This document shows positions 2,969 through 46,084 of a DNA stretch of 64,000 nucleotides, in pieces. Source of the DNA: a virus; the IMG/VR virus record IMGVR_UViG_3300021139_001840, positions 1 to 64,000 of that record; one strand, written 5' to 3'. Both the position numbers and the translations under genes were made by a program. Numbering within the stretch: the first letter of the stretch is position 1; every line of letters begins with the position of its first letter. The notes below the pieces were generated by a model. That model had not been told where the DNA came from, searched no databases, and saw nothing but the letters and a program-made list of their open reading frames with translations.

Positions 2969-5900
2969 TTATACTGCCGAGTTATCACTGATATAACTCC
3001 AGCGATTGCTTGTTGTGTCCCAGAAAGCTATTCTGCCTCCTGATGTAGGACTGTCTGAAACTGATGCTATTTGTCCCACAGTTCCTGTAATTAAAATTAA
3101 ATTTGCCGCTGTGTAAACTGGTAATTGAGCAAATACTGTGGCTGTGACACCAGCCGATGTTATATTGCCAACCGTAGAAATACTTCCTGGAGCTGTAAAG
3201 TTACCAGTATTATCGAAAGTCCAAGTCTCACCCGGGCCTCCTGATCTTTGATTGTTTGTAATAATTTCTACGTTAGTATTATTAATATAGACTGCACTAG
3301 TACCAAATCCTTTGCCGTCACTGCCATAATTATAAATGCGAACGGCACTATTGTCAGTTGGACCAACGATGTTTAAACCATAGCGCCAGTTAGAACTTGG
3401 TTCTTCAAAAATAGCACTGGTTAACGGTAAAGTCAACGCTCCTGATGAATCATATACCCAATTTGGTGTACCCGCCACACGAATTGTATAGTTGGTAGCA
3501 CCTGCTGTAAACGAGCCAGTCCCGCTACTATTGCGTAAGTCTACATCTGGTGTGTTGTTATTGATAACATAGTTTGTAGCTGATCCATTATTGGCAGCGA
3601 GCAAACTGCCATCATTTTCTATGGTAAGTGACTGCAAGCCGTTTATAATACTGTTGCTGCCAGGTGGACCATATGTCAACTCAAATGTATCTGTATTATA
3701 GTAAAGTGCGTTGACAGTATTGCCTGTGTCATTGCGTACTGGTGCCACTGTGAATGTATTGTCTGTTTGTTGATCTACAATATTACCAGTGGCATTTAAG
3801 ATAATTGAGTTATTGCCTTGCTTGTAATCGCCAGCATGTGCGCCAATAGCTATAGCGTTGGCACCTTGGAAATTATAACCAGCTTGTTGTCCAATTGATA
3901 TGGCCAATGAGTTCTGTCCAGTATGCCCAGAATTATCGCCAATGGCTATGGCACTATTGCCTTGAATAAATGCTCCAGCGGCTACACCAATAGCCACAGC
4001 ATAGTCATGTTGTCCTTCTTGACCTGCCCATTTACCAAGTCCTACAGCACTATTGCCCTGTGTATCTTGCCCAGCAAATTGACCAATTGCAATCGCCGCT
4101 TCGTGTTGAGTATTATTGCCAGCGTAATATCCAACAGCAATACTATTAGCACCTTGCACATTTGAACCAGCATTGGCACCAACAGCTATGTTACTTGGAC
4201 CATATTGATTGTTGATATTCCCAATGTTGGCCCAGTCAGTATTGCCGCCACTTGATCCGCCATAAGGTTGACCATTGGCATAATTAATGCTAGGATTGAC
4301 AGTCTCGACTGCCACAACAGTTAACTCACCGTTGCCAGTACTGCTGGGCTGATTAATAGTTAACTGATCACCCGGCGCATAGCCTTGGCCACGCTGATTA
4401 AGGGTGACACTAGTAATTGAACCAGCGTTGCCACTATCGGCTATGATGTCAACAGTTAGGCCTGTGCCTGTACCTGTGTCAGCAATGGTTGGCACGTTGG
4501 CCGCTGTGGAGTAGCCTACTGTGAGGCCAGCGTTAAGTGTGACAGCAGTAGCCAAGCCAGTTATAGCGCCCGGTAATGTCAAGTTGCCTGTAGCATCAAA
4601 AGTCCATTCAAAATTGTTTGAGCCATCGAATGTTTCTAATACCACAGGATAGTTGGTATTGGCTTGAACGTTAAATTGCATACCATTATCATCAATGCCA
4701 CTACCATTAGGAAAGGTCAATACTCCTTTGTTGCCCCAGGTTAATGTATCGCCCGATACATCTGTTATACTGAGTCCTTGATTGACTCCATTTCCCGACG
4801 GTGATAATACAGTTCCATTAGATAAGACCAAATTGCCGGTATTATCAAATGTCCAAAAGCCATTGTCCGTCTCAACATACGCATTGCCATCTGCAAGATA
4901 AACATAAGATGATCCGTTGCTGTAGCTGTCATTTTCTAACTGTGTATAGCTATTTGGGCCGGTAACAATATTGATACCACCTGTGCCATTGCCGTATATA
5001 CTAATATCTGTGTTGGCTAGATTAGTTGAAATGGTCGTGCTGTTAAATGTAATATTACCGGTATTCCCACTGCCCCCGCCTGGACCTGAAATTCCTGCTG
5101 GACTAGCATCTACCCACTGACTTGTAGTGCCATCATTGTAATAAACATATAAGCGCCCAGCCACTGAATTCCACCAAAGTGTGCTTGGAGTTGGGTTTAA
5201 GGGAGCAGTATCACTTTGTATAATGCTTCCACCGCCACCGCCTGATCCACTAATACCAGCTGGAGCAGCATCTACCCACTGACTTGAGGTACCGTCATTG
5301 TAGTAAACATATAAACGACCTGATACTTCATCCCACCATAAGGTACTTGCTGTAGGGTTTAAGGGAGGAGTTGCGCTTTGAATAATGCTTCCGGCTCCGC
5401 CTGAGAATGGTGTGCCATTGGCATAATAATAGTTGTTGGTTAATATTCCGCCAACTGTAATGTTACCAATCAACGATAAGTTAGCAGTTGGAGCTAACTC
5501 ATAAGCCATGCCAGCTACAACAGCCGAATTGGCGTAATCAGATTGTACAGAATAACCAGATGAATTGGCACGCTGTGACATTACAGCATTATTGGCAAAG
5601 GCAGCTAAATTGGCATTTAGAGCAAATAGTGCTGTATCAGCATTAATAGATTGTGTGGCTAAAGCTGCTAAGTTAGCAGTAGCGGCAGTGCCAGCAAATG
5701 TGGCATAATAAACATTACCAGTAATGGCACTGGCTCTAACATTGCTAATATTACCACCATCACCTGCTAGTATGCCTACTACAGTATTACCATATACAAT
5801 GTTGGCATAAACATTACCAGTTGTGGAAATATCACCAACTGCTGAAATTGAATCTACAGAACCAAATGTAGTTAAATTAGAATAAACGACCGTGGGATTT

Positions 5901-6523
5901 ATTGTAGTGCCTGAGATATTGGCTGCGTCAACATTGGCAGTTACATTAGTCAATTGGCTTCCGTCACCAATAAATGCTGGAGCTGTAACAGGAAGATTTG
6001 TCGTCCACGAATTTGATTCATATGAATAGGTGAAATTGGCATTGGCTCCATCTACCAGTATACCTGCTCCGTCAGCTTGGGCGCCATTAGAAGCGCCACT
6101 AGCCAGTGTAATTGTAGTATTTGATACAGTTAAATTAGAATAGTTAACAGTTACGATATTGCCTGTAACATTTAAATTGCCGTTTACATATAAATTACCA
6201 GTAAAAGTACTGGTATTGGCATTTAAATATTGTGTGTAAACTGTGTTAAAACGATTAGTTGATGTGCCAATTGAACGAACATTTGATAAATCTGGAGCTA
6301 GAGTGGAACGGACAACGACGGCCCCGACACCATTTGGTGCCAGTATCAAATTACCATTGGTATTGGTAGTTATAATGCTGTTATTAACGATTTCAATATT
6401 GCTACCAACAGGGCCAGCGTTGAAAACTTGGTCAAAATTGAGATTTACTTGTGTAAATGCGGTTCGTAAGGGTTCACCGGTTCCATCATTTGCTACATTA
6501 CCTGTGTTTATAATATATTGCAT
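2969..6523 (-). CDS. Long tail fibre protein with T4 gp9/gp10-like N-terminus and YadA-head-like repeats
   Basis: N-terminus INTGNVANDGTGEPLRTAFTQVNLNF; about 8 AIAIG repeats; WTFDxTGNL motifs. Likely ATG at 6523 (track starts at TTG 6538). Confidence 0.85.
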   Translation of the reverse strand: MQYIINTGNVANDGTGEPLRTAFTQVNLNFDQVFNAGPVGSNIEIVNNSIITTNTNGNLILAPNGVGAVVVRSTLAPDLSNVRSIGTSTNRFNTVYTQYLNANTSTFTGNLYVNGNLNVTGNIVTVNYSNLTVSNTTITLASGASNGAQADGAGILVDGANANFTYSYESNSWTTNLPVTAPAFIGDGSQLTNVTANVDAANISGTTINPTVVYSNLTTFGSVDSISAVGDISTTGNVYANIVYGNTVVGILAGDGGNISNVRASAITGNVYYATFAGTAATANLAALATQSINADTALFALNANLAAFANNAVMSQRANSSGYSVQSDYANSAVVAGMAYELAPTANLSLIGNITVGGILTNNYYYANGTPFSGGAGSIIQSATPPLNPTASTLWWDEVSGRLYVYYNDGTSSQWVDAAPAGISGSGGGGGSIIQSDTAPLNPTPSTLWWNSVAGRLYVYYNDGTTSQWVDASPAGISGPGGGSGNTGNITFNSTTISTNLANTDISIYGNGTGGINIVTGPNSYTQLENDSYSNGSSYVYLADGNAYVETDNGFWTFDNTGNLVLSNGTVLSPSGNGVNQGLSITDVSGDTLTWGNKGVLTFPNGSGIDDNGMQFNVQANTNYPVVLETFDGSNNFEWTFDATGNLTLPGAITGLATAVTLNAGLTVGYSTAANVPTIADTGTGTGLTVDIIADSGNAGSITSVTLNQRGQGYAPGDQLTINQPSSTGNGELTVVAVETVNPSINYANGQPYGGSSGGNTDWANIGNINNQYGPSNIAVGANAGSNVQGANSIAVGYYAGNNTQHEAAIAIGQFAGQDTQGNSAVGLGKWAGQEGQHDYAVAIGVAAGAFIQGNSAIAIGDNSGHTGQNSLAISIGQQAGYNFQGANAIAIGAHAGDYKQGNNSIILNATGNIVDQQTDNTFTVAPVRNDTGNTVNALYYNTDTFELTYGPPGSNSIINGLQSLTIENDGSLLAANNGSATNYVINNNTPDVDLRNSSGTGSFTAGATNYTIRVAGTPNWVYDSSGALTLPLTSAIFEEPSSNWRYGLNIVGPTDNSAVRIYNYGSDGKGFGTSAVYINNTNVEIITNNQRSGGPGETWTFDNTGNFTAPGSISTVGNITSAGVTATVFAQLPVYTAANLILITGTVGQIASVSDSPTSGGRIAFWDTTSNRWSYISDNSAV
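5095..5395 (-). repeat. Tandem duplication of a ~50-aa module within the fibre gene
   Basis: GSIIQS..PLNPT.STLWW..V.GRLYVYYNDGT.SQWVDA.PAGISG occurs twice, separated by a Gly linker. Confidence 0.9.
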
Positions 6524-6704
6524 ATAGGTTTTTACCAATCCTTAGTATTTGTTATTATTTAGTTAAACTACCGTATAGCAAGTTTTGGATAAAATTATTA
6601 ATACAATCAGCCAAAATAGTTGTTTTTCTCGGTTAGTTAGCGTATACTGCATATATGTTGTTAACTCAACTACCGTTTATATTAACTATGAAAGGATAAA
6701 CGAA

Positions 6705-6974
6705 ATGAAATTGATTAATCCAGAAAGCAAGACTTTTCGCGTATTTCGCGCACTCCAGTCCGGTCAAGCCTTAACCGCTAGCAAAGCAACTAAACTAGGT
6801 GTTAAGAATTTATCTGCTGAAGTTTCACGCATCAAGCAACATGGTTTTGCCGTTTATACCAACAGCCGCAAAGCAAATAACGGTGTCCAAGTTACTGAAT
6901 ACGTAATGGGCAAGCCAAGCCGTAAAATTGTAGCCCTTGGTTACAAAGCATTGGCCGCAGGAATGACTGTTTAA
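6705..6974 (+). CDS. Small basic winged-HTH-like DNA-binding protein
   Basis: AAGGA SD before ATG 6705; LQSGQALTASKATKLGVKNLSAEVSRIKQHGF pattern. Confidence 0.6.
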   Translation: MKLINPESKTFRVFRALQSGQALTASKATKLGVKNLSAEVSRIKQHGFAVYTNSRKANNGVQVTEYVMGKPSRKIVALGYKALAAGMTV

Positions 6975-8396: not shown

Positions 8397-9293
8397 ATGA
8401 AAATAGCCATTGCTTCCGACATACACCTTGAATTTGGTTCAATTATGTTACACAACGACAAACAAGCCGATGTGTTAATTCTTGCGGGTGATATTTGTAC
8501 AGTTAAAACTTTTAAAAAGAAACCCAAAGAACGGGTGGGACTTATTGATTTTTTTAGTAACTGTTCCGCTATGTTTAAAGATGTTATATACATTTGTGGT
8601 AATCACGAACACTATGATTATGACATTGCTGAAACTTATAAAACACTTAAAAAAGAATTAGCACAATTTCCTAATATTCACATTTTAGAAAAAGAAACTG
8701 TAGATATTGGCAACATTACTTTTGTTTGTGGCACACTTTGGACTGATATGAATAAAAATGATTCATTGACTTTATGGCATTGTGGTCGAGCAATGAATGA
8801 TTTTCAGTTGATTAAAAATAGCTGTCGTATGACACATCATACCAATACAGTTTATGTTAAGAATCCTGATGGTTCGGGCATGAATTTAAAAGATGCCGAA
8901 GGTAACTTAGTTGTAGAACGAGTTGACCATTATGAAAAAGCATCTCGTTGGTCGCCAGAAGATTCAGTCGAAGACCACAAAAAAATGATTGACTACATTG
9001 ATATTGTTACCAAAGATAAAACAAAACAATATGTGGTAGTTGGTCATCATGCGCCATCGACTTTAAGTATAGCCGAATGTTATAAAGGTGATAAGTTAAT
9101 GAACGGAGCTTTCCATTCTGACCTCAGCGAATTCATCATTGATCGCCCGCAAATTAAACTTTGGGTACACGGACACATGCACAATAATAGCAATTATTGG
9201 ATTGGCGAAACTCATGTAGTTTGTAATCCCAGAGGATATGTTGGTTACGAAAGTTCTGCCACTTGGTTTGAATTACAATATTTGGAAATATAA
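8397..9293 (+). CDS. Calcineurin-like metallophosphoesterase
   Basis: SDIHLE, LAGDI, GNHEHY, HHAP, HGHMH motifs. Confidence 0.9.
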   Translation: MKIAIASDIHLEFGSIMLHNDKQADVLILAGDICTVKTFKKKPKERVGLIDFFSNCSAMFKDVIYICGNHEHYDYDIAETYKTLKKELAQFPNIHILEKETVDIGNITFVCGTLWTDMNKNDSLTLWHCGRAMNDFQLIKNSCRMTHHTNTVYVKNPDGSGMNLKDAEGNLVVERVDHYEKASRWSPEDSVEDHKKMIDYIDIVTKDKTKQYVVVGHHAPSTLSIAECYKGDKLMNGAFHSDLSEFIIDRPQIKLWVHGHMHNNSNYWIGETHVVCNPRGYVGYESSATWFELQYLEI

Positions 9294-13620: not shown

Positions 13621-13645
13621 ATTACTTTACTTTAAGGAGATGTCA

Positions 13646-14095
13646 ATGAGTATTACTATTAAGAATTTGGAGGCGGCATTTGCAGGTGAAAGCCAAGCGT
13701 TTACCAAATATATGTATTTTGCTAAGATTGCTAGAGCAGAAGGATATGAGGAAGTAGCTAAACATTTTGAGCATACAGCTTCGCAAGAACTATTGCATTC
13801 GCATGGTCACTTGGAATTGATTGTGGGTAAACCCTCTACTAAAGAATGTTTGCAAATGGCCATTGAAGGTGAAACATACGAATTCACTACGATGTATCCA
13901 GAATTTTTAGACAAAGCCATGGAAGAAGGCGACTATGCGGCAGCCAAAGAAGCAAAAACACAAATTGCCGAAAGCAGAGAACATGCTAGTGAATTCGTAA
14001 CTATGCTGAAAAAAGCTGAAAAACGATTTGCTGCATTATCTCGAGTAGAAAAGCGTCATGCTGAGGCTTATTCAAAAGTGCTGGAGACTCTATAA
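13646..14095 (+). CDS. rbr: Rubrerythrin (short form, no fused rubredoxin)
   Basis: NLEAAFAGESQA...YFAKIARAEG...QELLH...EGETYE...MYP...ESREH; AAGGAG SD. Confidence 0.9.
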   Translation: MSITIKNLEAAFAGESQAFTKYMYFAKIARAEGYEEVAKHFEHTASQELLHSHGHLELIVGKPSTKECLQMAIEGETYEFTTMYPEFLDKAMEEGDYAAAKEAKTQIAESREHASEFVTMLKKAEKRFAALSRVEKRHAEAYSKVLETL

Positions 14096-14249: not shown

Positions 14250-14325
14250 TAAATACTCTGCGGGCACAAGATAAGGTGTCGCTGGATCCGTAACCAGTAC
14301 TAAAGGACCTTTTGGTCCTTTTTTT
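14250..14325 (+). ncRNA. Candidate small structured RNA between a TAAATA promoter and a terminator
   Basis: TAAATA at 14250; hairpins GCG(G)GCAC/GTGTCGC and CTGG/CCAG; terminator AAAGGACC-TTTT-GGTCCTTT plus T run. Confidence 0.5.
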
Positions 14326-14396
14326 ATTGTAATAATTTTCTGGTTGATTTTTGCTATATACTATGTTACAGTTATATTACAAAAGGAGGATTGGCT

Positions 14397-14555
14397 ATGA
14401 AACAAAAAAAATTAATTTCCAAATTGTATCAGGCTTGTCTAGACCACAACGTCGAAAAGGTTCAAGAACTCAAGAAAAAAGAGTTTGAAAAAATCTTTAA
14501 ACACAAGGCCCAAGGCAAACAATTTGATACTAAGTGGCATGTAGTTACGGTGTAA
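14397..14555 (+). CDS. Small basic protein (52 aa; not in ORF track)
   Basis: AAGGAGG SD; [17 protein letters not shown]... Confidence 0.7.
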
Positions 14556-14600: not shown

Positions 14601-15359
14601 ATGCCAGAGAAAACTTACCGTTCAATCTTCATCTCAGACATACATCTCGGGACCCGTGACTGTAAGGCAGAAGCTCTCAATAACTTTCTCAAGCACAACA
14701 CCTGCGAAACACTTTATCTTGTAGGCGATGTGATAGATGCCTGGAAAATACAGCAAAACAAATGGCGTTGGAAACAGAGCCATACCAATGTTGTACGCAG
14801 AATCTTGGGCCATGCCAAGCGCGGCACTAGAGTGATTTATGTGGCTGGAAATCACGATGAATTCCTCCGCCCGCTTATTCCTTATGGTATGGGTTTTGGC
14901 GCAGTAGAAATTGTTAATCAAACGGAACACATTGGATTAGATGGTAAACACTATCTAGTTACACACGGCGATCTCTTTGATGGCATTACACGCTTGGCTC
15001 CCTGGCTGAGTTTCCTAGGAGATAAATTATATGACTTCGTTCTCGATCTTAACAGCAGGTTTAATTGGATACGCCACAGGATGGGTTTTGGTTATTGGAG
15101 TTTGTCTAAGTTTCTCAAGCATAAGGTCAAGAAAGCCGCTGACTTTATGTTTCAGTTTGAGCTTAATCTTGCTGGTTATTGCCGCAAGCGCGGTTATGAT
15201 GGCGTTATCGTAGGTCATATTCACTCGGCCGAAATAAAAGAAATAGATGGCATTATCTACATGAATGACGGTGACTGGGTGGAGTCAATGACCGCACTAG
15301 TGGAACATCACGATGGTCAGTGGGAAATTGTGTCTTGGACTAAAACAAGTGACAAATAA
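14601..15359 (+). CDS. PlcP/LpxH-like metallophosphoesterase (putative phospholipase C)
   Basis: SDIHLG, LVGDVID.W, GNHDEFLR, HGDLFD, GHIH, NDGDWVES. Confidence 0.85.
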   Translation: MPEKTYRSIFISDIHLGTRDCKAEALNNFLKHNTCETLYLVGDVIDAWKIQQNKWRWKQSHTNVVRRILGHAKRGTRVIYVAGNHDEFLRPLIPYGMGFGAVEIVNQTEHIGLDGKHYLVTHGDLFDGITRLAPWLSFLGDKLYDFVLDLNSRFNWIRHRMGFGYWSLSKFLKHKVKKAADFMFQFELNLAGYCRKRGYDGVIVGHIHSAEIKEIDGIIYMNDGDWVESMTALVEHHDGQWEIVSWTKTSDK

Positions 15360-16260
15360 CGACAAATTATATGTAGTAACTAGCATATTCAATCCTCAAG
15401 AATATCAATCAAGATATCGGTTATACAATAATTTTGCTGATTATATTAAACAATTTGAAAATGTTGAATTGTGGACTGTAGAACTTATATTTGAAGGGCA
15501 AAATTTTGTAGTTACACAATCAGATTGTCCGCAACATATACAGCTCAAGACTGATGAAATTTTATGGTATAAAGAAAATTTACTTAATATCGGCATCCAA
15601 CATCTTCCTGTTGAGGCCAAATATATTGCTTGGATAGATGCTGACATTGTATTTGAAAATCCTAATTGGTCAGTTAACACTATAGCCGCATTAGACCAGT
15701 ATCCTTTTGTGCAAATGTTTGAAGAAGCTCTTGACCTTGGCCCTGACGGCGAAGTTGTTGGGCGAGATAAAAGTTTTATATACAAATGGTTAAACGGCAA
15801 TGAAAATCCTAAAAAACGGGGCCGTTCGGGACTAGCTTGGGCCGCTACTCGTGATGCTTTAGATTGTGTTGGCGGGTTAATTGATTGGGGTATCGTAGGA
15901 TCAGGTGACTGGTTTATGGCATTTAGTTTAACAGAGCAAGTAACGGATTCTAGTTTAAATAGAAAGAGCGGCGGATTCAGCGGCCAAGCTATACAAGCGT
16001 GGGCGGACTTATGTAAAAAATGCGTGGCAGGTAATGTAGGATATGTTACTGGATCAATAAAACATAACTGGCACGGTAAAAAATCAAACCGTGGTTATAA
16101 TTGGCGTTGGAAAATATTAAGCGAAAATAAATTTAATCCCATTGAAGATTTAGGATATAAAGAAAATGGATTGATTAAACTTAAATCGCACAAACCTCAA
16201 TTATTAGAAGATATACAACAATACTTTCAATCTAGAGATGAAGACGATACAGAAAAATAA
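15349..16260 (+). CDS. GT-A fold glycosyltransferase-like protein
   Basis: KENLLNIG, WIDADIVF (DxD), GSGDW, HNWHG. Start uncertain (GTG 15349 or ATG 15313). Confidence 0.7.
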   Translation: MTNNDKLYVVTSIFNPQEYQSRYRLYNNFADYIKQFENVELWTVELIFEGQNFVVTQSDCPQHIQLKTDEILWYKENLLNIGIQHLPVEAKYIAWIDADIVFENPNWSVNTIAALDQYPFVQMFEEALDLGPDGEVVGRDKSFIYKWLNGNENPKKRGRSGLAWAATRDALDCVGGLIDWGIVGSGDWFMAFSLTEQVTDSSLNRKSGGFSGQAIQAWADLCKKCVAGNVGYVTGSIKHNWHGKKSNRGYNWRWKILSENKFNPIEDLGYKENGLIKLKSHKPQLLEDIQQYFQSRDEDDTEK

Positions 16261-17260
16261 ACTTAAAACAATTTTAATAGTTACAGACAATGTTACAAAT
16301 CAAATTAACGGAGTGGTCACAACTTTCAAAGCCTTGGAAGATTGCGCTAATGATGCTGGGTATAACATTGTTTATTGTGATCCCGGGCAGTTCCCTCATA
16401 TTGATTGTCCTGGTTACCCTGAAGTTAAACTTTCCTGGCCACACGGCATTTCTAAAAAGATTAAGGCGTTACAGCCGGATTATATTCACATTGCCACCGA
16501 AGGGCCAGTAGGATTCTTTGCTCGTTGGTGGTGTGAGCGTAATAGCATTCCATATAATACAAGTTATCATACAGATTTTCCTAAGTTTTTAAAAACAATG
16601 TATGGCATACCTAAATCTTGGACTTATTGGTATTTGCGTTGGTTTCATAAAAACAGTCATCGAGTATTAACTACAACCAAAAGTATTAAAAAAGATTTAG
16701 AACTACACGGATTTAAAAATTTAGTAGTATGGACTCGTGGGGTGGACAGAACTATATTTAATAGCACACATCGTGGAGAAACTGTAGCAGGCCGACCTAT
16801 ACTATTAAATGTTAGTCGTGTTAGTAAAGAAAAAGGCTTAGATGATTTTTGTCGTTTAGATTATCCTGGCGCAACTAAAATCATAGTAGGTGACGGTCCG
16901 TATCGACGAGAGTTAGAACAACGTTATCCCAAGGTTCATTTTGCTGGAGCCAAACGAGGAATACAATTGGCACATTATTATGCCCAAGCTGATGTATTTG
17001 TATTTCCAAGTCGTTCCGATACGTTTGGTGTAGTTAACATAGAAGCCATGGCTTGTGGAACTCCTGTCGCTGCTTATCCCGTTCCTGGTCCCATTGACAT
17101 TATCGAAGAAGGAATAACGGGTAGTTTAGATAATAATCTAGCATTGGCTATTGCTCGTTGTTTGCTACTCAATCGTTCTCAAGTAGAAGATGCCAGTTTG
17201 AAATGGACATGGGATAAATGCTGGCATATATTCCAAAAAAACCTTGTGTCTATTGTATAA
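16238..17260 (+). CDS. GT4 glycosyltransferase, Agt-like
   Basis: QINGVV, IHIATEGPVG, TSYHTDFP, FPSRSDTFGVVNIEAMACGTPV. Confidence 0.9.
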   Translation: MKTIQKNKLKTILIVTDNVTNQINGVVTTFKALEDCANDAGYNIVYCDPGQFPHIDCPGYPEVKLSWPHGISKKIKALQPDYIHIATEGPVGFFARWWCERNSIPYNTSYHTDFPKFLKTMYGIPKSWTYWYLRWFHKNSHRVLTTTKSIKKDLELHGFKNLVVWTRGVDRTIFNSTHRGETVAGRPILLNVSRVSKEKGLDDFCRLDYPGATKIIVGDGPYRRELEQRYPKVHFAGAKRGIQLAHYYAQADVFVFPSRSDTFGVVNIEAMACGTPVAAYPVPGPIDIIEEGITGSLDNNLALAIARCLLLNRSQVEDASLKWTWDKCWHIFQKNLVSIV

Positions 17261-17278: not shown

Positions 17279-17307
17279 TTGATTCTTTATTACCAAACTG
17301 TTATAAT
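17279..17307 (+). promoter_or_regulatory. Sigma70-type promoter
   Basis: TTGATT-17-TATAAT; ATG 6 nt downstream. Confidence 0.8.
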
Positions 17308-17313
17308 CACAGT

Positions 17314-17544
17314 ATGAAAAATAAAGAATTAGCACATTACGTCAAGTGGGTAGCAACCACAATTACCCTTTCGGGCGCAGTATTAGCTTCATTAAACATT
17401 TATCCCTATAGTGCCGTCACGCTAAACATTGGAGCGGGGTTATTCTTAATCTGGGCTATTTTGGTTAAAGATCGTGCTATGATCACAGTAAATCTTGGGT
17501 TATTACTAATATATTCAACGGGATTAGCTATTAAATCGTTGTAA
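17314..17544 (+). CDS. Small three-TM membrane protein
   Basis: Three hydrophobic segments. Confidence 0.7.
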   Translation: MKNKELAHYVKWVATTITLSGAVLASLNIYPYSAVTLNIGAGLFLIWAILVKDRAMITVNLGLLLIYSTGLAIKSL

Positions 17545-23892: not shown

Positions 23893-24444
23893 ATGAACAC
23901 ACTACGCAAAGACATTAATTTAGTAGAGGCTACTACTAAACCAGCCAAATTAGAAACAACCCCACTGCCTTATACACACAAGGCGCTTGAACCAGTAATG
24001 TCAGCTGAAACTATAGAATATCATTTTGAGCATCTTGCCAAAGGATACGCTAAAAAATACAATGCTGGGGAAGGGAATCCTGACTTTAATCGTGCGGGCA
24101 GTTTCTTGCACAACAAGTTTTTCCCACAACTTCGTGCGCCCAAGGGTGCTAATCGCCCTAAAGGTGCTGTGTTAGAATTAATTGAAACTAATTTTAAAAC
24201 TTACGAAGATTTTAAAATAGCATTTAAAAAGGTGGCCATGGCCATCCAGGGAAGTGGATGGTCCTATCTCTCTACATCGGGCACGATTAAAACCATCCCA
24301 AACCATCAGGTGCGGACAGATGTCGCTCTTTTGCTTGATATGTGGGAGCATTCGTTCGTTTTAGACTATCTCTGGGACAAAGAAAAATATATAGATAACT
24401 TCTGGAAAATAGTAGACTGGAATGTCGTAAACGAACGGCTTTGA
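23893..24444 (+). CDS. sod: Fe/Mn superoxide dismutase
   Basis: LPY...LEP.MS.ETIEYH, LHNKFF, GSGW, DMWEH, DWNVVNERL. Confidence 0.9.
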   Translation: MNTLRKDINLVEATTKPAKLETTPLPYTHKALEPVMSAETIEYHFEHLAKGYAKKYNAGEGNPDFNRAGSFLHNKFFPQLRAPKGANRPKGAVLELIETNFKTYEDFKIAFKKVAMAIQGSGWSYLSTSGTIKTIPNHQVRTDVALLLDMWEHSFVLDYLWDKEKYIDNFWKIVDWNVVNERL

Positions 24445-38143: not shown

Positions 38144-38875
38144 TTAATCGTACATCTTTAAGATATGCGTTATCATATGATGACGCTGAATATCCTTAGA
38201 TTCAAACTCGCATAGACTAATGCCCTTTACACCCCCTTTCTTAAGTCTGGTTAGGATGTCGGCTAAGCCGTTTTTTGCGCCGGTTCGATCGGTCTGTTCG
38301 GTGTCCCCTGTCACTACTATCTTACTGCCTTCGCCAATGCGTGTTAGAAGCATGACCATTTGAGCAGGGGTCATATTTTGAGCCTCGTCAGCGATGATAA
38401 ATGCTTTTTTTAGTGATCTGCCTCTCATAAACGACAACGGAGCAATTTCAATTTTCTGATCTTCGATCATCGCTGCAATGTCTTGCGGACGATAATACTC
38501 TCTCAGTATGTCTGTAATTGGTTTAATCCACGGGTCCATTTTTTGATTTAAGTCACCCGGTAAAAATCCGTGATTTTCGTTTTCAACAGAAACTGCTGGT
38601 CTAGTTAGTACTATGCGATCTACTTCTCCTTCTCTAAAGGCTTTTATTGCCGCCAGGACGGCAAGATATGTCTTGCCTGTGCCTGCCGGACCCGCTGTTA
38701 CGACAATATACTGACTATCGTCTTGTAAAGCCAATACTAACTTTTCCTGATTTCTAGTTCTGGGAACTATGTCAATCGGGCGTTGTTTTACTGGTTTAAC
38801 TTGGTCGAAGCGTATTGTGTTTTCTGGTTGTGCCATTTGGCGTTTTTGTGATTTTACTGCTCTGTGTCTACTCAA
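38144..38875 (-). CDS. phoH: PhoH-family ATPase
   Basis: GPAGTGKT, LTRPAV, GFLPG, FMRGR, DEAQN, GDTEQTD; GGAG SD before TTG 38875. Confidence 0.95.
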   Translation of the reverse strand: MSRHRAVKSQKRQMAQPENTIRFDQVKPVKQRPIDIVPRTRNQEKLVLALQDDSQYIVVTAGPAGTGKTYLAVLAAIKAFREGEVDRIVLTRPAVSVENENHGFLPGDLNQKMDPWIKPITDILREYYRPQDIAAMIEDQKIEIAPLSFMRGRSLKKAFIIADEAQNMTPAQMVMLLTRIGEGSKIVVTGDTEQTDRTGAKNGLADILTRLKKGGVKGISLCEFESKDIQRHHMITHILKMYD

Positions 38876-39053
38876 TTTATACTCCATTGTAGTTGAGTTA
38901 CTTCCGACAGCACCTTGCTGTCCAAAGTATTTACGACCCATGATTTTTATATTCTATGGGTGTTAATAAGTGTAATAGATAGCATAAGTACATACCCAGG
39001 CCCCAAAAATTCAAAATAACCCTAACCTTTCCATTTAACTAAATAATAGTACC

Positions 39054-42961: not shown

Positions 42962-43741
42962 ATGTCAGATCATTATCAAACACTAAATGTTCCCCGCGGA
43001 GCAACGCAAGAAGAAATTAAAAAGGCTTATCGCAAATTAGCCGGGCAATATCATCCAGATAAAGGTGGTGATAAAGTAAAGTTTCAGGAAATTCAAGCCG
43101 CATACTCTGTATTAGGTGATGATCAAAAAAGAGCACAATACGATAATCCTGGACAAAATATTCATTTTGAATTTGGCAGTCCCGGAGGTTTTGATTTTAG
43201 TTCCATTTTTAGTATGTTTGGACAGCAAGTTCATCAACAATCACATCGTCAAAGTCATACACGCATGAGTTTGTGGGTAACACTACAAGATGTCGCACAA
43301 GGCGGAAAACGCCCAGTTACTGTTGGTACTAGCCACGGTACTATGAATATTGAAATTGAAATTCCTTTGGGCATTGAAGATGGGGATAATGTTCAGTATC
43401 CAAAATTGGGGCCCGGCGGTACAGATTTAATTGTTAATTTCCGCATACATCCTAATCCTAAATGGGCACGAGCTGGGTTACATTTAACCACTGAACATTC
43501 TATTAGTATTTGGGACTGTATGGTTGGTGGCACAACAGAAATACGTGATATATTAGGCAACCAAATTAATCTTACCATTCCTGCACTTACACAGCCTGGC
43601 AGTTTATTGCGTTTAAAGGGCAGAGGGTTATCATCGCGTCAAGGAATCACAGGTGATTTATTGGTTAGAATTCAAGCCAAAATGCCATCAAATATTAGCA
43701 CAGAATTATCCGAACTTATTAAACAAGAACAAAAAAAATAG
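42962..43741 (+). CDS. DnaJ/CbpA-like J-domain chaperone
   Basis: J domain with HPD; C-terminal DnaJ domain; no zinc finger. Confidence 0.92.
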   Translation: MSDHYQTLNVPRGATQEEIKKAYRKLAGQYHPDKGGDKVKFQEIQAAYSVLGDDQKRAQYDNPGQNIHFEFGSPGGFDFSSIFSMFGQQVHQQSHRQSHTRMSLWVTLQDVAQGGKRPVTVGTSHGTMNIEIEIPLGIEDGDNVQYPKLGPGGTDLIVNFRIHPNPKWARAGLHLTTEHSISIWDCMVGGTTEIRDILGNQINLTIPALTQPGSLLRLKGRGLSSRQGITGDLLVRIQAKMPSNISTELSELIKQEQKK

Positions 43742-43804
43742 CCATAACAGTTGTGTTTGCGACAAAATTGCTATATACTATTACAGTACCAAGCAAAGGA
43801 AAAC

Positions 43805-46084
43805 ATGCAGAATAATAAAGAAATTGAACAAATTGTTGCGCAGGCTGTCAAAATAGCTAAAGATCTTCAACACGAATACGTGTTAACCGAACATGTTTTA
43901 TTGGCGCTAATACGTCATGCTCCATTTCAGACTGTGATGGAAAATTTTGGTATCAATGTCAATATGTTAGACATGGAACTTGATGCTTATTTGCAAAGTT
44001 TAACAAATTTAGTCACTGACAAAAAAGATCACCAGCCTAGAAAAACAAATGCGTTGGAACGCTGTTTTAATCGAGCAATGACACAAGTTCTTTTTACTGG
44101 TCGTCGCTCTATGACTACTGGAGATTTATATCTTGCTATTATGGCCGAAACCAATAGCCATGCTCAATATTTCCTTTTAAAATATGGTGTTAAAAAAGTT
44201 GAGTTTTATGATTATTGGCAACAAAATTATAAACATGATGACATTAAACTTACAGGCACACAAGCGGATGAAATATTAAATGAATACTGTGTAAATTTGA
44301 CTCGTTTGGCAACAGAAGATAGACTAGAGCCAATGATTGGACGCAGTGAAGAATTAGATCAAATGATTACAGCACTGGCAAGGCGTTTTAAAGCCAATGT
44401 ATTAATGGTAGGCGATCCTGGCGTGGGCAAAACTGCTATTGTAGAAGGACTTGCTCAAGAAATTATTGCTAATCGTGTTCCTAAATTCCTTATTGGACAC
44501 GAAGTATGGTCGTTAGAAATTGGATCATTGCTTGCTGGCAGCAAATACCGCGGTGAATTTGAAGAAAAATTTAAACAAGTTATTGGTGCGCTTGAAGCTA
44601 AGAAAAATTGTATTTTGTTTATTGACGAAGCACATACAATGAAAGGTGCTGGTGCTAGTTCACAAAGTACTTTAGACTTTGCCAATATGTTGAAGCCAAG
44701 CATTACTAAAGGCACACTCAAAGTTGTAGCGTCAACAACATGGGAAGAATATTACGAATCATTTGAAAAAGATCGTGCTTTAATGCGTCGTTTCCATCGT
44801 GTGGCTATTGATGAGCCAAGTCCAGAAGTTACGGAACAAATTCTTATTGGATTAAGCCCACGTTTAGAATTATTTCACAATGTTATGATTGAAACAGAAG
44901 CCATTAAAACTGCTGTGGATTTAAGCGGCCGTTATATACATGACCGTAAGAATCCGGATAAGTCAATTGACTTATTAGATGGTGCTTGTGCTCGTGAACG
45001 TGTTAAAGATGCAGGCAATGTGCCTATTACTAAAGATTTAATTATGGCTCAGTTAAGTCGTGTAACTGAAGTGCCAATAGATAGACTACAAAACGAACGT
45101 TCTGCCAGCATAGTAGAGTTAGAAAGCAATATTAAAGAAAAACTATATGGGCAAGACGAAGCAGTAGATTCAGTACTTGAACGTGTCTACATTAACTTTT
45201 CAGGCATTGGCAACGATTCTCGCCCCATTGCTTCATTTTTGTTCTTGGGTCCAACAGGTACTGGTAAAACGGAACTTGCTAAATTGCTGGCCAAGAATTT
45301 AGATATGCAATTATTAAAGTATGACATGAGTGAATATCAAGAAAAACATACTGTTAGCTCATTAATTGGTGCTCCGCCTGGTTATGTAGGATTTGAAGAT
45401 GGCAATGTCGGAGGTGGAAAACTTATTTCGGACATTTCAAAGAATCCATATTCAATTATTTTGTTTGACGAAATTGAAAAAGCACATCCAGATGTTATCA
45501 ACATTATGTTACAAATGCTTGATGAAGCTCGCATTACATCAGCCAATGGAAAAACAGTTAATCTCAAAAATACCATTATCATTATGACATCAAATTTAGG
45601 ATCTCGTGATAATGAAAATAATAATATTGGGTTTGGGCAAGACTTAGAAAAAACTGGATCAGAAGAAAAAGCAATGAAAAACTTCTTCAAGCCTGAACTA
45701 CGCAATCGTATTGACCAAATATGTAAATTCAAAAAACTTGATACATTGGCCATTAAGAAAGTTGTACTTAAATTTGTTGAGCAATTACAAACAAGTTTAA
45801 CTACAAAAAATATCAAACTTAATTTATCCGAATCAGTTATTGACATGTTAGCTGAAAAAGGATATGACAGTAAAATGGGGGCTCGTCCTTTGAATCGCAA
45901 AATTGATGAACTTATTCGTGTACCATTAAGTAAGAAAATTTTATTCGAACGGTTAACTGACTGTGTAATTAATGCTATAATGGTAGATGATAAAATTGAT
46001 TTTACAATTATACCAACAACTACATTTCCAGCTTTAGATAGTTCCGGAATAATTGTGCTGAATAATGAATCCCCTAACATTTAA
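43805..46084 (+). CDS. clpA: ClpA-like Hsp100 ATPase
   Basis: Clp N-domain; GDPGVGKT and GPTGTGKT; IGAPPGYVG; IGF loop; MGARPL; no ClpB middle domain. Confidence 0.92.
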   Translation: MQNNKEIEQIVAQAVKIAKDLQHEYVLTEHVLLALIRHAPFQTVMENFGINVNMLDMELDAYLQSLTNLVTDKKDHQPRKTNALERCFNRAMTQVLFTGRRSMTTGDLYLAIMAETNSHAQYFLLKYGVKKVEFYDYWQQNYKHDDIKLTGTQADEILNEYCVNLTRLATEDRLEPMIGRSEELDQMITALARRFKANVLMVGDPGVGKTAIVEGLAQEIIANRVPKFLIGHEVWSLEIGSLLAGSKYRGEFEEKFKQVIGALEAKKNCILFIDEAHTMKGAGASSQSTLDFANMLKPSITKGTLKVVASTTWEEYYESFEKDRALMRRFHRVAIDEPSPEVTEQILIGLSPRLELFHNVMIETEAIKTAVDLSGRYIHDRKNPDKSIDLLDGACARERVKDAGNVPITKDLIMAQLSRVTEVPIDRLQNERSASIVELESNIKEKLYGQDEAVDSVLERVYINFSGIGNDSRPIASFLFLGPTGTGKTELAKLLAKNLDMQLLKYDMSEYQEKHTVSSLIGAPPGYVGFEDGNVGGGKLISDISKNPYSIILFDEIEKAHPDVINIMLQMLDEARITSANGKTVNLKNTIIIMTSNLGSRDNENNNIGFGQDLEKTGSEEKAMKNFFKPELRNRIDQICKFKKLDTLAIKKVVLKFVEQLQTSLTTKNIKLNLSESVIDMLAEKGYDSKMGARPLNRKIDELIRVPLSKKILFERLTDCVINAIMVDDKIDFTIIPTTTFPALDSSGIIVLNNESPNI

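Follow-up and report, generated by a model that had tools for sequence, protein, structure and literature searches.

The stretch of DNA analysed here (the window, 64,000 nucleotides) covers positions 1–64,000 of a 96.8-kb virus record in IMG/VR, IMGVR_UViG_3300021139_001840, whose completeness is put at 28% by CheckV. A DNA polymerase of family B and T4 type and a tail-fibre gene mark the record as viral; a Lon-like protease is also encoded. Three overlapping open reading frames (ORFs) of 252, 315 and 340 amino acids (aa) on the + strand, which together span positions 14601–17260, are the subject of this work. They encode a predicted PlcP-family metallophosphoesterase (gene 1, plcP), a predicted glycosyltransferase of GT-A fold (gene 2, termed MID) and a predicted GT4 glycosyltransferase of the Agt clade (gene 3; Table 1). 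Proteins nearly identical to that of gene 1 are found on contigs of 317–367 kb, and the record is therefore a fragment of a jumbo phage of ~340 kb.

An earlier sequence-only reading of the stretch had proposed this layout of metallophosphoesterase, GT-A and GT4 in overlapping frames. The ORFs, Pfam in the case of genes 1 and 3, and the predicted fold of gene 2 bear it out, and the motifs it quoted (SDIHLG, GDVID, GNHDEFLR, QINGVV, IHIATEGPVG and TSYHTDFP) are all present. Genes 2 and 3 overlap by 23 nucleotides (nt). The overlap between genes 1 and 2 is 47 nt if the longest ORF is taken and 11 nt if gene 2 starts at GTG 15349; the latter is probably the true start because it fits the ~302-aa length of the homologues.

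Table 1. Features in and around the three-gene cluster, with positions counted from the first nucleotide of the window
Feature	Positions	Strand	Remarks
Gene 1, predicted PlcP-family metallophosphoesterase (LpxH-like phospholipase C type)	14601–15359	+	252 aa
Gene 2 (MID), predicted GT-A-fold glycosyltransferase	15313–16260	+	longest ORF, 315 aa
Gene 3, Agt-clade GT4 (GT-B), predicted diacylglycerol glycosyltransferase	16238–17260	+	340 aa
Second metallophosphoesterase	8397–9293		298 aa; no NCBIfam match
Rubrerythrin gene	13643–14095		shortly before the cluster; also near plcP in several relatives
Terminator-like hairpin and T run after the rubrerythrin gene	14302–14321	+	consensus scan only
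Sigma-70-like promoter match TTGCTA-16-TATATT, before the small ORF and plcP	14351–14378	+	9 of 12 consensus matches; not evidence of function
54-aa ORF just upstream of plcP	14391–14555	+	no Pfam match
Promoter-like match ahead of the DUF6552 gene	17279–17307		consensus scan
Small hydrophobic DUF6552 protein, after the GT4	17311–17544	+	Pfam, 36.5 bits
Fe/Mn superoxide dismutase gene	23893–24444
PhoH gene	38144–38941	−
DnaJ-like chaperone and Lon-like ATP-dependent protease genes	42962–46084		side by side

Gene 1 matches a single Pfam family, Metallophos (42.9 bits). The metal ligands D13, H15, D43, N84, H122, H206 and H208 are complete and are invariant across the family. The protein is 53.5% identical to the PA3219-type PlcP of Pseudomonas aeruginosa and 45.7% identical to the Sinorhizobium meliloti type, whereas identity with LpxH of Escherichia coli K-12 is 23%, over 120 aa only. 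The two PlcP references are orthologues from other strains, taken from chromosomes filed as plasmids in PLSDB; their mutual identity of 46.6% matches the 46% published for PA3219 and the S. meliloti PlcP (PMC8528852), in agreement with this identification. The P. aeruginosa homologue is found directly upstream of a glycosyltransferase gene (locus L295), the PA3219–PA3218 arrangement described in PMC8528852, and S. meliloti has a single chromosomal homologue that adjoins a gene for a LuxR-type regulator. As regards the filing of these replicons, the 3.72-Mb S. meliloti replicon (L294, CP090106.1) carries the PLSDB label ‘plasmid pSymB’, yet is chromosome-sized, and P. aeruginosa ‘plasmids’ of 96–167 kb in PLSDB contain the chromosomal plcP-agt1 region.

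Genes of this type commonly bear another name. LpxH, i.e. UDP-2,3-diacylglucosamine diphosphatase, is the name used by JGI, by PGAP in the case of the bacterial homologues and by GenBank in the case of phages Mosig and S-SRM01, and virome papers class ‘lpxH’ as an auxiliary gene of the lipopolysaccharide (LPS) pathway. Were this correct, the cluster would modify lipid A or LPS. Gene 1, however, fails both NCBIfam LpxH equivalog models (TIGR01854 and NF003743), with 37.7 bits against a cut-off of 190.35 and 47.9 bits against 134. The scores of the LpxH model in 31 gammaproteobacterial genomes are bimodal: true LpxH proteins score 177–344 bits and a second paralogue, present in six of the 31, scores 32–46, with gene 1 at 36. 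These six genomes, Photobacterium and five others, hold both a true LpxH and the PlcP-like paralogue; in Photobacterium the paralogue is 45% identical to gene 1.

The same division is seen in maximum-likelihood trees, where LpxH was represented by the proteins above the NCBIfam cut-off plus that of E. coli. LpxH forms one clade, with 100% support in the Shimodaira–Hasegawa-like approximate likelihood ratio test (SH-aLRT); the two reference PlcPs, like every phage protein, are on the opposite side of the branch. A PlcP-versus-LpxH phylogeny was one of the checks that the sequence-only reading had proposed for its assignment of the phosphoesterase to PlcP, and the assignment is upheld. The motif that follows the Asn ligand differs as well, being GNHD in gene 1 and at least 95% of the PlcP-like proteins and GNRD in at least 90% of the LpxH proteins, that of E. 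coli included.

Structural modelling of gene 1 by AlphaFold predicts a confident LpxH-like core with a two-helix insert at residues 128–197. Foldseek searches with the model place LpxH structures at the top 25 ranks, in keeping with a lipid-handling enzyme from this superfamily. The only part of its 274-aa relatives that gene 1 is without is a variable, non-conserved C-terminal tail of ~20 aa. On these sequence comparisons gene 1 is assigned to the PlcP family and not to LpxH. A class-level genome search found homologues in 146 of 401 alphaproteobacterial genomes (one genome of the sample is unpublished, and none of the conclusions depends on it), and a scan with the Mosig protein gave matches in Kordiimonas, Croceicoccus and others, with no characterised strain among them. 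A blastn search of GenBank phages with all three genes of the cluster gave no match, and phage relatives emerged only by protein search.

Gene 3 has the GT-B architecture of the GT4 family (Pfam Glyco_transf_4, 65.3 bits, and Glycos_transf_1, 78.4 bits). Identity is 38.7% to Agt1 of P. aeruginosa and 39–40% to cellular GT4s encoded next to PlcP, compared with 14–24% to a further 17 GT4 paralogues that those genomes encode. A tree places gene 3 with the PlcP-adjacent GT4s and apart from the 17 paralogues (89% SH-aLRT). This split was likewise a check that the sequence-only reading had put forward, here for its identification of the GT4 as Agt, and it favours that identification.

The signature of the clade is known from the study of GTcp from SAR11. 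Its markers are a His-Asp dyad, with Asp in place of the usual GT4 Glu, the motifs GRVAxEKN and FPSxTDTFG, a Thr-Arg pair and a C-terminal Trp. Members of the Agt/GTcp clade are less than 25% identical to other GT4s; mutagenesis of GTcp supports the signature residues, and Thr-Arg and Trp are implicated in binding of diacylglycerol (DAG). Gene 3 contains H111, T166-R167, SRVSKEKG, FPSRSDTFG (Asp261), E269 and W325, with a spacing that matches H104, T162-R163, R190/K195, D256, E264 and W320 of GTcp. Across 65 GT4s, either from phages or from PlcP-adjacent cellular loci, conservation of these residues is 95% or more, and the 17 paralogues carry Glu and are without Thr-Arg. Gene 3 is thus best described as an Agt-clade GT4 and a predicted diacylglycerol glycosyltransferase.

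The plcP gene is widespread, being found at 83–94% identity to the window copy on more than 599 IMG/VR contigs. Eighty of these contigs were fetched, and downstream genes were surveyed in 86 loci with a phage-type PlcP. Of these 86, 82 have a glycosyltransferase gene within ~2.6 kb downstream of plcP. In 42 loci the GT4 gene follows directly, and in 29 its place is taken by a GT2/GT21-like glycosyltransferase of 237 aa. A RimK-family ligase gene precedes the GT4 in six loci and a GIY-YIG endonuclease gene in two. The order plcP, MID, GT4 is found once, as are plcP followed by MID alone and plcP followed by a 243-aa gene without known family. One locus has no downstream match (L229, on a Mosig-like contig that extends only 1.4 kb past plcP), and in three the downstream stretch is too short to judge. 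That three glycosyltransferase families occupy one and the same place after plcP argues strongly, from gene context, that the phosphoesterase supplies a glycosylation step, as it does in bacteria. The plcP-GT4 order is also found in cellular loci (L005–L024) of Sphingomonadales, other Alphaproteobacteria and Holophagaceae, and in P. aeruginosa.

The space between plcP and the GT4 gene appears to be an insertion hot spot. The inserted RimK-family proteins (L048, L052, L057, L076, L090 and L097; e.g. L052:6095–6988) are alpha-L-glutamate ligases that score 217 bits with TIGR00768, above the cut-off, and might modify a glucuronosyl head group. The endonucleases are of the GIY-YIG homing type and LEM-3-like (L072:1278–2141 and L075:6267–7130). 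The GT2/GT21-like genes that stand in place of the GT4 encode 237–253 aa, e.g. L053:6752–7465 and L110:6686–7447.

Between the window and its nearest relatives, synonymous sites are saturated; dN is 0.05–0.13 for plcP and 0.10–0.28 for the GT4, and dN/dS is 0.03–0.04 (omega about 0.04 or less) and 0.07–0.20, respectively. These low values indicate strong purifying selection on both genes in phages. Two contigs binned with bacteria, one from a Haliscomenobacter metagenome-assembled genome (MAG; L002) and one from a Gammaproteobacteria MAG (L003), have a phage-type PlcP at 82% identity that falls inside the viral clade, and are probably phage contigs that were placed in bacterial MAGs.

In several bacteria under phosphorus stress, PlcP frees DAG from phospholipids and Agt converts it to glucosyl- or glucuronosyl-DAG (MGDG and GADG; PMC4796936, PMC8528852, PMC9239053, PMC13691135). 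By analogy, the gene pair in the window is proposed to be a phage version of this lipid renovation, whereby host phospholipid would be converted to a DAG glycolipid during infection; we give this a probability of about 0.72. The PlcP-type enzyme would remove the phosphorylated head groups of host glycerophospholipids, so that DAG stays behind in the membrane. This DAG would next receive a sugar from a uridine diphosphate (UDP)-sugar through the Agt-type GT4, as with the characterised Agt enzymes, whose donors are UDP-glucose or UDP-glucuronate. The bilayer would persist, now with a phosphorus-free glycolipid, and the released phospho-head groups could feed the nucleotide pool for a genome of ~340 kb. 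Co-expression is suggested by the overlap of the frames; the inserted GT-A gene, probably expressed together with its neighbours, may add a second glycolipid or a second sugar.

The phosphorus economy of such an infection can be estimated. One copy of a ~340 kb genome requires, by simple arithmetic, ~680,000 phosphorus atoms. An E. coli-sized cell has roughly 2 x 10^7 phospholipid molecules and, if this figure is right, the membrane is a meaningful phosphorus reserve. A lean towards a phosphorus benefit also comes from Pelagibacter phage Mosig, where the PlcP homologue (48% identity) is head-to-head with a putative phosphate ABC transporter gene (L118, MT647606.1 93031–94866); the two look like a phosphorus-stress gene pair. 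The sequence-only reading had cited PhoH and a nucleotidase in the window as signs of adaptation to phosphorus stress. PhoH is indeed present, and by itself says little about such stress; its role in phages is debated. The nucleotidase was not recovered, as no NT5C match is found in the 96.8-kb record, itself 28% complete; the second metallophosphoesterase of the window may be the gene that was meant.

Several points weigh against the proposed phage lipid renovation. Substrate and product are predicted from homology at 39–54% identity, and the promoter call is a consensus match only. The 89% SH-aLRT value of the GT4 split comes from a quick search in which several outgroup sequences have very long branches. 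In some phage GT4s (L068 and L002) the Asp of the Agt clade (DTFG) is replaced by Glu (WETFG). The corresponding D256E substitution lowers the activity of GTcp by more than 90%, and Agt-like behaviour therefore need not hold for all phage copies. No PstS-type binding protein is encoded in the 96.8-kb record, of which, again, 28% completeness is estimated. In addition, release of head groups alone yields no phosphate, and a phosphatase step has to be assumed.

The middle gene requires separate consideration. Gene 2 has no match in Pfam, NCBIfam or PHROG, and its 491 homologues, mostly viral with giant viruses included, are without exception annotated hypothetical; PF00535 is carried by two of the 120 homologues listed. 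The AlphaFold model (predicted local distance difference test score, pLDDT, 94.3) has a GT-A fold and matches the structures of GT2-type enzymes, namely heparosan synthase, SpsA and TarP (Foldseek E ~1e-7; VIA-align Z 12–14 over 180–220 residues). D109-x-D111, which corresponds to the DxD metal/nucleotide-sugar site, is invariant in 89 homologues. An alignment of the MID family with phage GT2 by hhalign gave a weak match, of 51% probability and around the DxD motif only. From the model and the conserved motif, gene 2 can be described with confidence as a predicted GT-A-fold glycosyltransferase of an unnamed and mostly viral family.

MID is a lineage-specific insertion between plcP and agt. It is absent from the 115 other PlcP loci first examined. 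Conversely, neither a PlcP nor a GT4 is encoded within 5 kb of the MID homologues in 80 viral loci, which include giant-virus MAGs, and the neighbours of these homologues have no family in common; the context of the homologues thus gives no support for a lipid role. Even the closest relatives of MID, in L266, L149 and L150, do not adjoin PlcP. Together with the unrelated inserts, i.e. the RimK-like ligase and the GIY-YIG endonuclease, that occupy the same gap in other phages, this distribution is in line with the view that MID is a mobile, stand-alone viral glycosyltransferase with a non-lipid target that landed by chance in an insertion-prone gap. We give this explanation an even chance.

Two other contigs speak for more than a chance landing. 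The first, L267, repeats the plcP-MID-GT4 order with overlapping frames, and its first two genes are 93–94% identical to those of the window. In the second (Ga0209777_10006970, L269, locus 3165–6925), a divergent PlcP of 56% identity is followed directly by a MID homologue of 66% identity, at the position that Agt or the GT2-like enzyme holds elsewhere, and there is no GT4. Its neighbours are genes for ThyX, a Gram-negative porin and a 2-oxoglutarate (2OG)-oxygenase, and it shares nothing beyond PlcP and MID with the available part of the window phage; it is probably another phage with host-like membrane genes. In L267, a 5-kb metagenome contig, the MID homologue (1867–2810) is split over two frames near position 2090, which reflects either a frameshift or a misassembly.

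On this sequence evidence the middle gene may have a lipid role, which is not established. One can go further and suppose that the MID subfamily is a new viral lipid glycosyltransferase that acts on PlcP-derived DAG or on the Agt product. MID would then belong to interchangeable cassettes, in jumbo phages and in others, made up of PlcP plus a glycosyltransferase, in which the partner is a GT4, a GT2/GT21-like enzyme or MID, sometimes with a RimK-type ligase, and which turn the host membrane into phage-specific, phosphorus-free glycolipids; ‘lpxH’ in viromes would then stand for a widespread mining of membrane phosphorus. This is a tentative reading, which we consider doubtful.

The two-enzyme conversion of phospholipid to glycolipid could also serve an end other than the recovery of phosphorus. 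The same chemistry might change the envelope so as to block superinfection, to alter sensitivity to membrane agents or grazers, or to stabilise the membrane during a long infection. All evidence on enzyme identity applies equally to this explanation. The lipid composition of membranes is reported to be linked with phage attachment (PMC9938194), with the susceptibility of P. aeruginosa to phages (PMC9804370) and with predation (PMC9457565), and glycolipids have been tied to protection against a last-resort antibiotic (PMC8528852). Furthermore, the gene pair is found, as far as is visible, across the whole phage clade and not just on contigs from phosphorus-poor sites. However, a change of inner-membrane lipid is an indirect route to the blocking of adsorption at the outer surface, and the transporter gene beside the Mosig homologue points to phosphorus. 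We regard an envelope benefit in place of phosphorus recovery as improbable, although it should be pointed out that the two are not mutually exclusive and that the data here do not separate them.

A further explanation takes the phosphoesterase as a membrane-degrading factor for lysis or takeover, and the glycosyltransferases as unrelated enzymes that glycosylate DNA or virion proteins. Sugar-nucleotide and deazaguanine genes elsewhere in the record do offer other possible uses for glycosyltransferases. Against this, the pairing of plcP with a glycosyltransferase holds over three glycosyltransferase families, the GT4 has the residues implicated in DAG binding in GTcp, and the overlapping frames point to co-expression, which together make it very improbable. 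Gene 1 as LpxH is hardly credible and was rejected on HMM scores of 36–48 bits against cut-offs of 134–190, its place on the PlcP side of a 100%-supported branch and the GNHD motif, quite apart from a partner gene that is predicted to be an Agt-type DAG glycosyltransferase and not a lipid A gene.

The flanks of the cluster provide some hints on its transcription. The terminator-like hairpin that follows the rubrerythrin gene is likely to be the upstream boundary of the transcription unit. It should be noted that counts in the promoter and terminator scan are close to those in shuffled sequence, and terminator-like sites are no commoner than in shuffled sequence. For the T4-type late promoter word TATAAATA no enrichment is seen, and none of its copies is near the locus. 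With tblastn, the 54-aa ORF ahead of plcP is recovered at 49–89% identity, and at the corresponding place, from more than 30 related viral loci. Homologues of the DUF6552 protein are found within a few kb of plcP in L058, L078, L114 and L116, and this gene is only loosely associated with the module.

Elsewhere, the phage carries oxidative-stress genes, i.e. those for rubrerythrin and superoxide dismutase. No tRNAs were found in the 64-kb window. Past the window, positions 75500–79770 of the record contain a row of sugar-nucleotide genes that encode a C-methyltransferase, a cupin, an SDR protein, an NAD epimerase/dehydratase and a dehydrogenase-family protein. The last is short, at 257 aa, and belongs to the UDP-glucose/GDP-mannose dehydrogenase family. 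These genes could supply donors to the phage glycosyltransferases.

The replacement of phospholipid by glycolipid is a major bacterial answer to phosphorus scarcity, and has so far counted as a property of cells. The enzyme pair behind it is now found strongly conserved in a widespread clade of jumbo phages, with homologues also in a SAR11 phage and a cyanophage. If the proposed function is confirmed, membrane lipid would join the resources that phages re-route, and there would be an explanation for a gene that annotation pipelines and virome work now assign, as ‘lpxH’, to LPS synthesis; viral plcP-type genes would then be a marker of phosphorus-limited infections. The variable partner genes are a natural candidate set for new glycolipid-forming enzymes. 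Searches of the literature that combined phage and lipid-remodelling terms gave no report of a phage plcP, and none of the papers searched contains both ‘plcP’ and ‘auxiliary metabolic’. The enzyme families themselves are known. The novelty lies in their phage setting and extreme conservation, in partner glycosyltransferases that are interchangeable, and in the insertion of a GT-A gene.

Of known systems, LpxH is the nearest solved structure to gene 1 (PDB 5B49, 5K8K and 6PH9; Foldseek E 1e-10, TM 0.55–0.6). The two share the superfamily, the overall fold, a helical insert over the active site and the metal ligands. They differ in sequence (17–24% identity), in GNRD versus GNHD, in their separate clades and in a block at residues ~220–227, which reads YMNDGDWV in gene 1.

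Phage-borne genes of the same PlcP-like clade are found in Pelagibacter phage Mosig (Mosig_00120, 48% identity, annotated ‘putative UDP-2,3-diacylglucosamine hydrolase’) and in Synechococcus phage S-SRM01 (35%, also annotated as LpxH). Both are of other phage lineages, and in Mosig no glycosyltransferase gene adjoins the PlcP-like gene, which is not mentioned in the Mosig genome paper. A parallel of a different kind is offered by Pgt, a GT21-type processive DAG glycosyltransferase of Mesorhizobium loti and Agrobacterium that is cited in PMC4796936. The GT2/GT21-like gene that replaces the GT4 in 29 sister-phage loci echoes bacterial plcP neighbourhoods with other glycosyltransferases; this likeness is at the level of the Pfam GT2/GT21 domain only, and concerns the sister phages and not the window.

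The closest counterpart is the bacterial PlcP-Agt pair itself, for which the comparison included P. aeruginosa PA3219–PA3218, S. meliloti SMc00171, SAR11 HTCC7211 PB7211_983 and PB7211_960, Phaeobacter sp. MED193, M. trichosporium OB3b and B. cenocepacia BCAL2364–2365. The phage module has both enzyme families, the order of plcP upstream of the GT4, and the catalytic and substrate-binding motifs in common with these. Its proteins are 39–54% identical to the characterised members, which are 46–51% identical among themselves. The PlcP family is defined by release of DAG from PC, PE or PG, by pairing with a DAG-using lipid synthesis gene, mostly agt, and by a Pho box for induction when phosphate is limiting, a mode of control that is likely to differ in a phage; the Agt/GTcp clade is defined by DAG as acceptor and UDP-glucose, UDP-glucuronate or UDP-galactose as donor. 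Unlike the bacterial pairs, it is encoded by a jumbo phage, has an extra GT-A gene in between and has a PlcP that is 83–94% conserved over hundreds of contigs; Burkholderia, moreover, has a dagK partner, whereas the phage module is without one.

Marine phages are known to carry the phosphate-stress auxiliary genes pstS, phoA and phoH, which act on uptake or on dissolved organic phosphorus. The logic of the module in the window, where phoH is also present, would be similar, in that the phosphorus supply of the infected cell is boosted. In contrast to these genes, however, a PlcP-Agt module would draw on the membrane of the infected cell itself and put another lipid in place of the one consumed.

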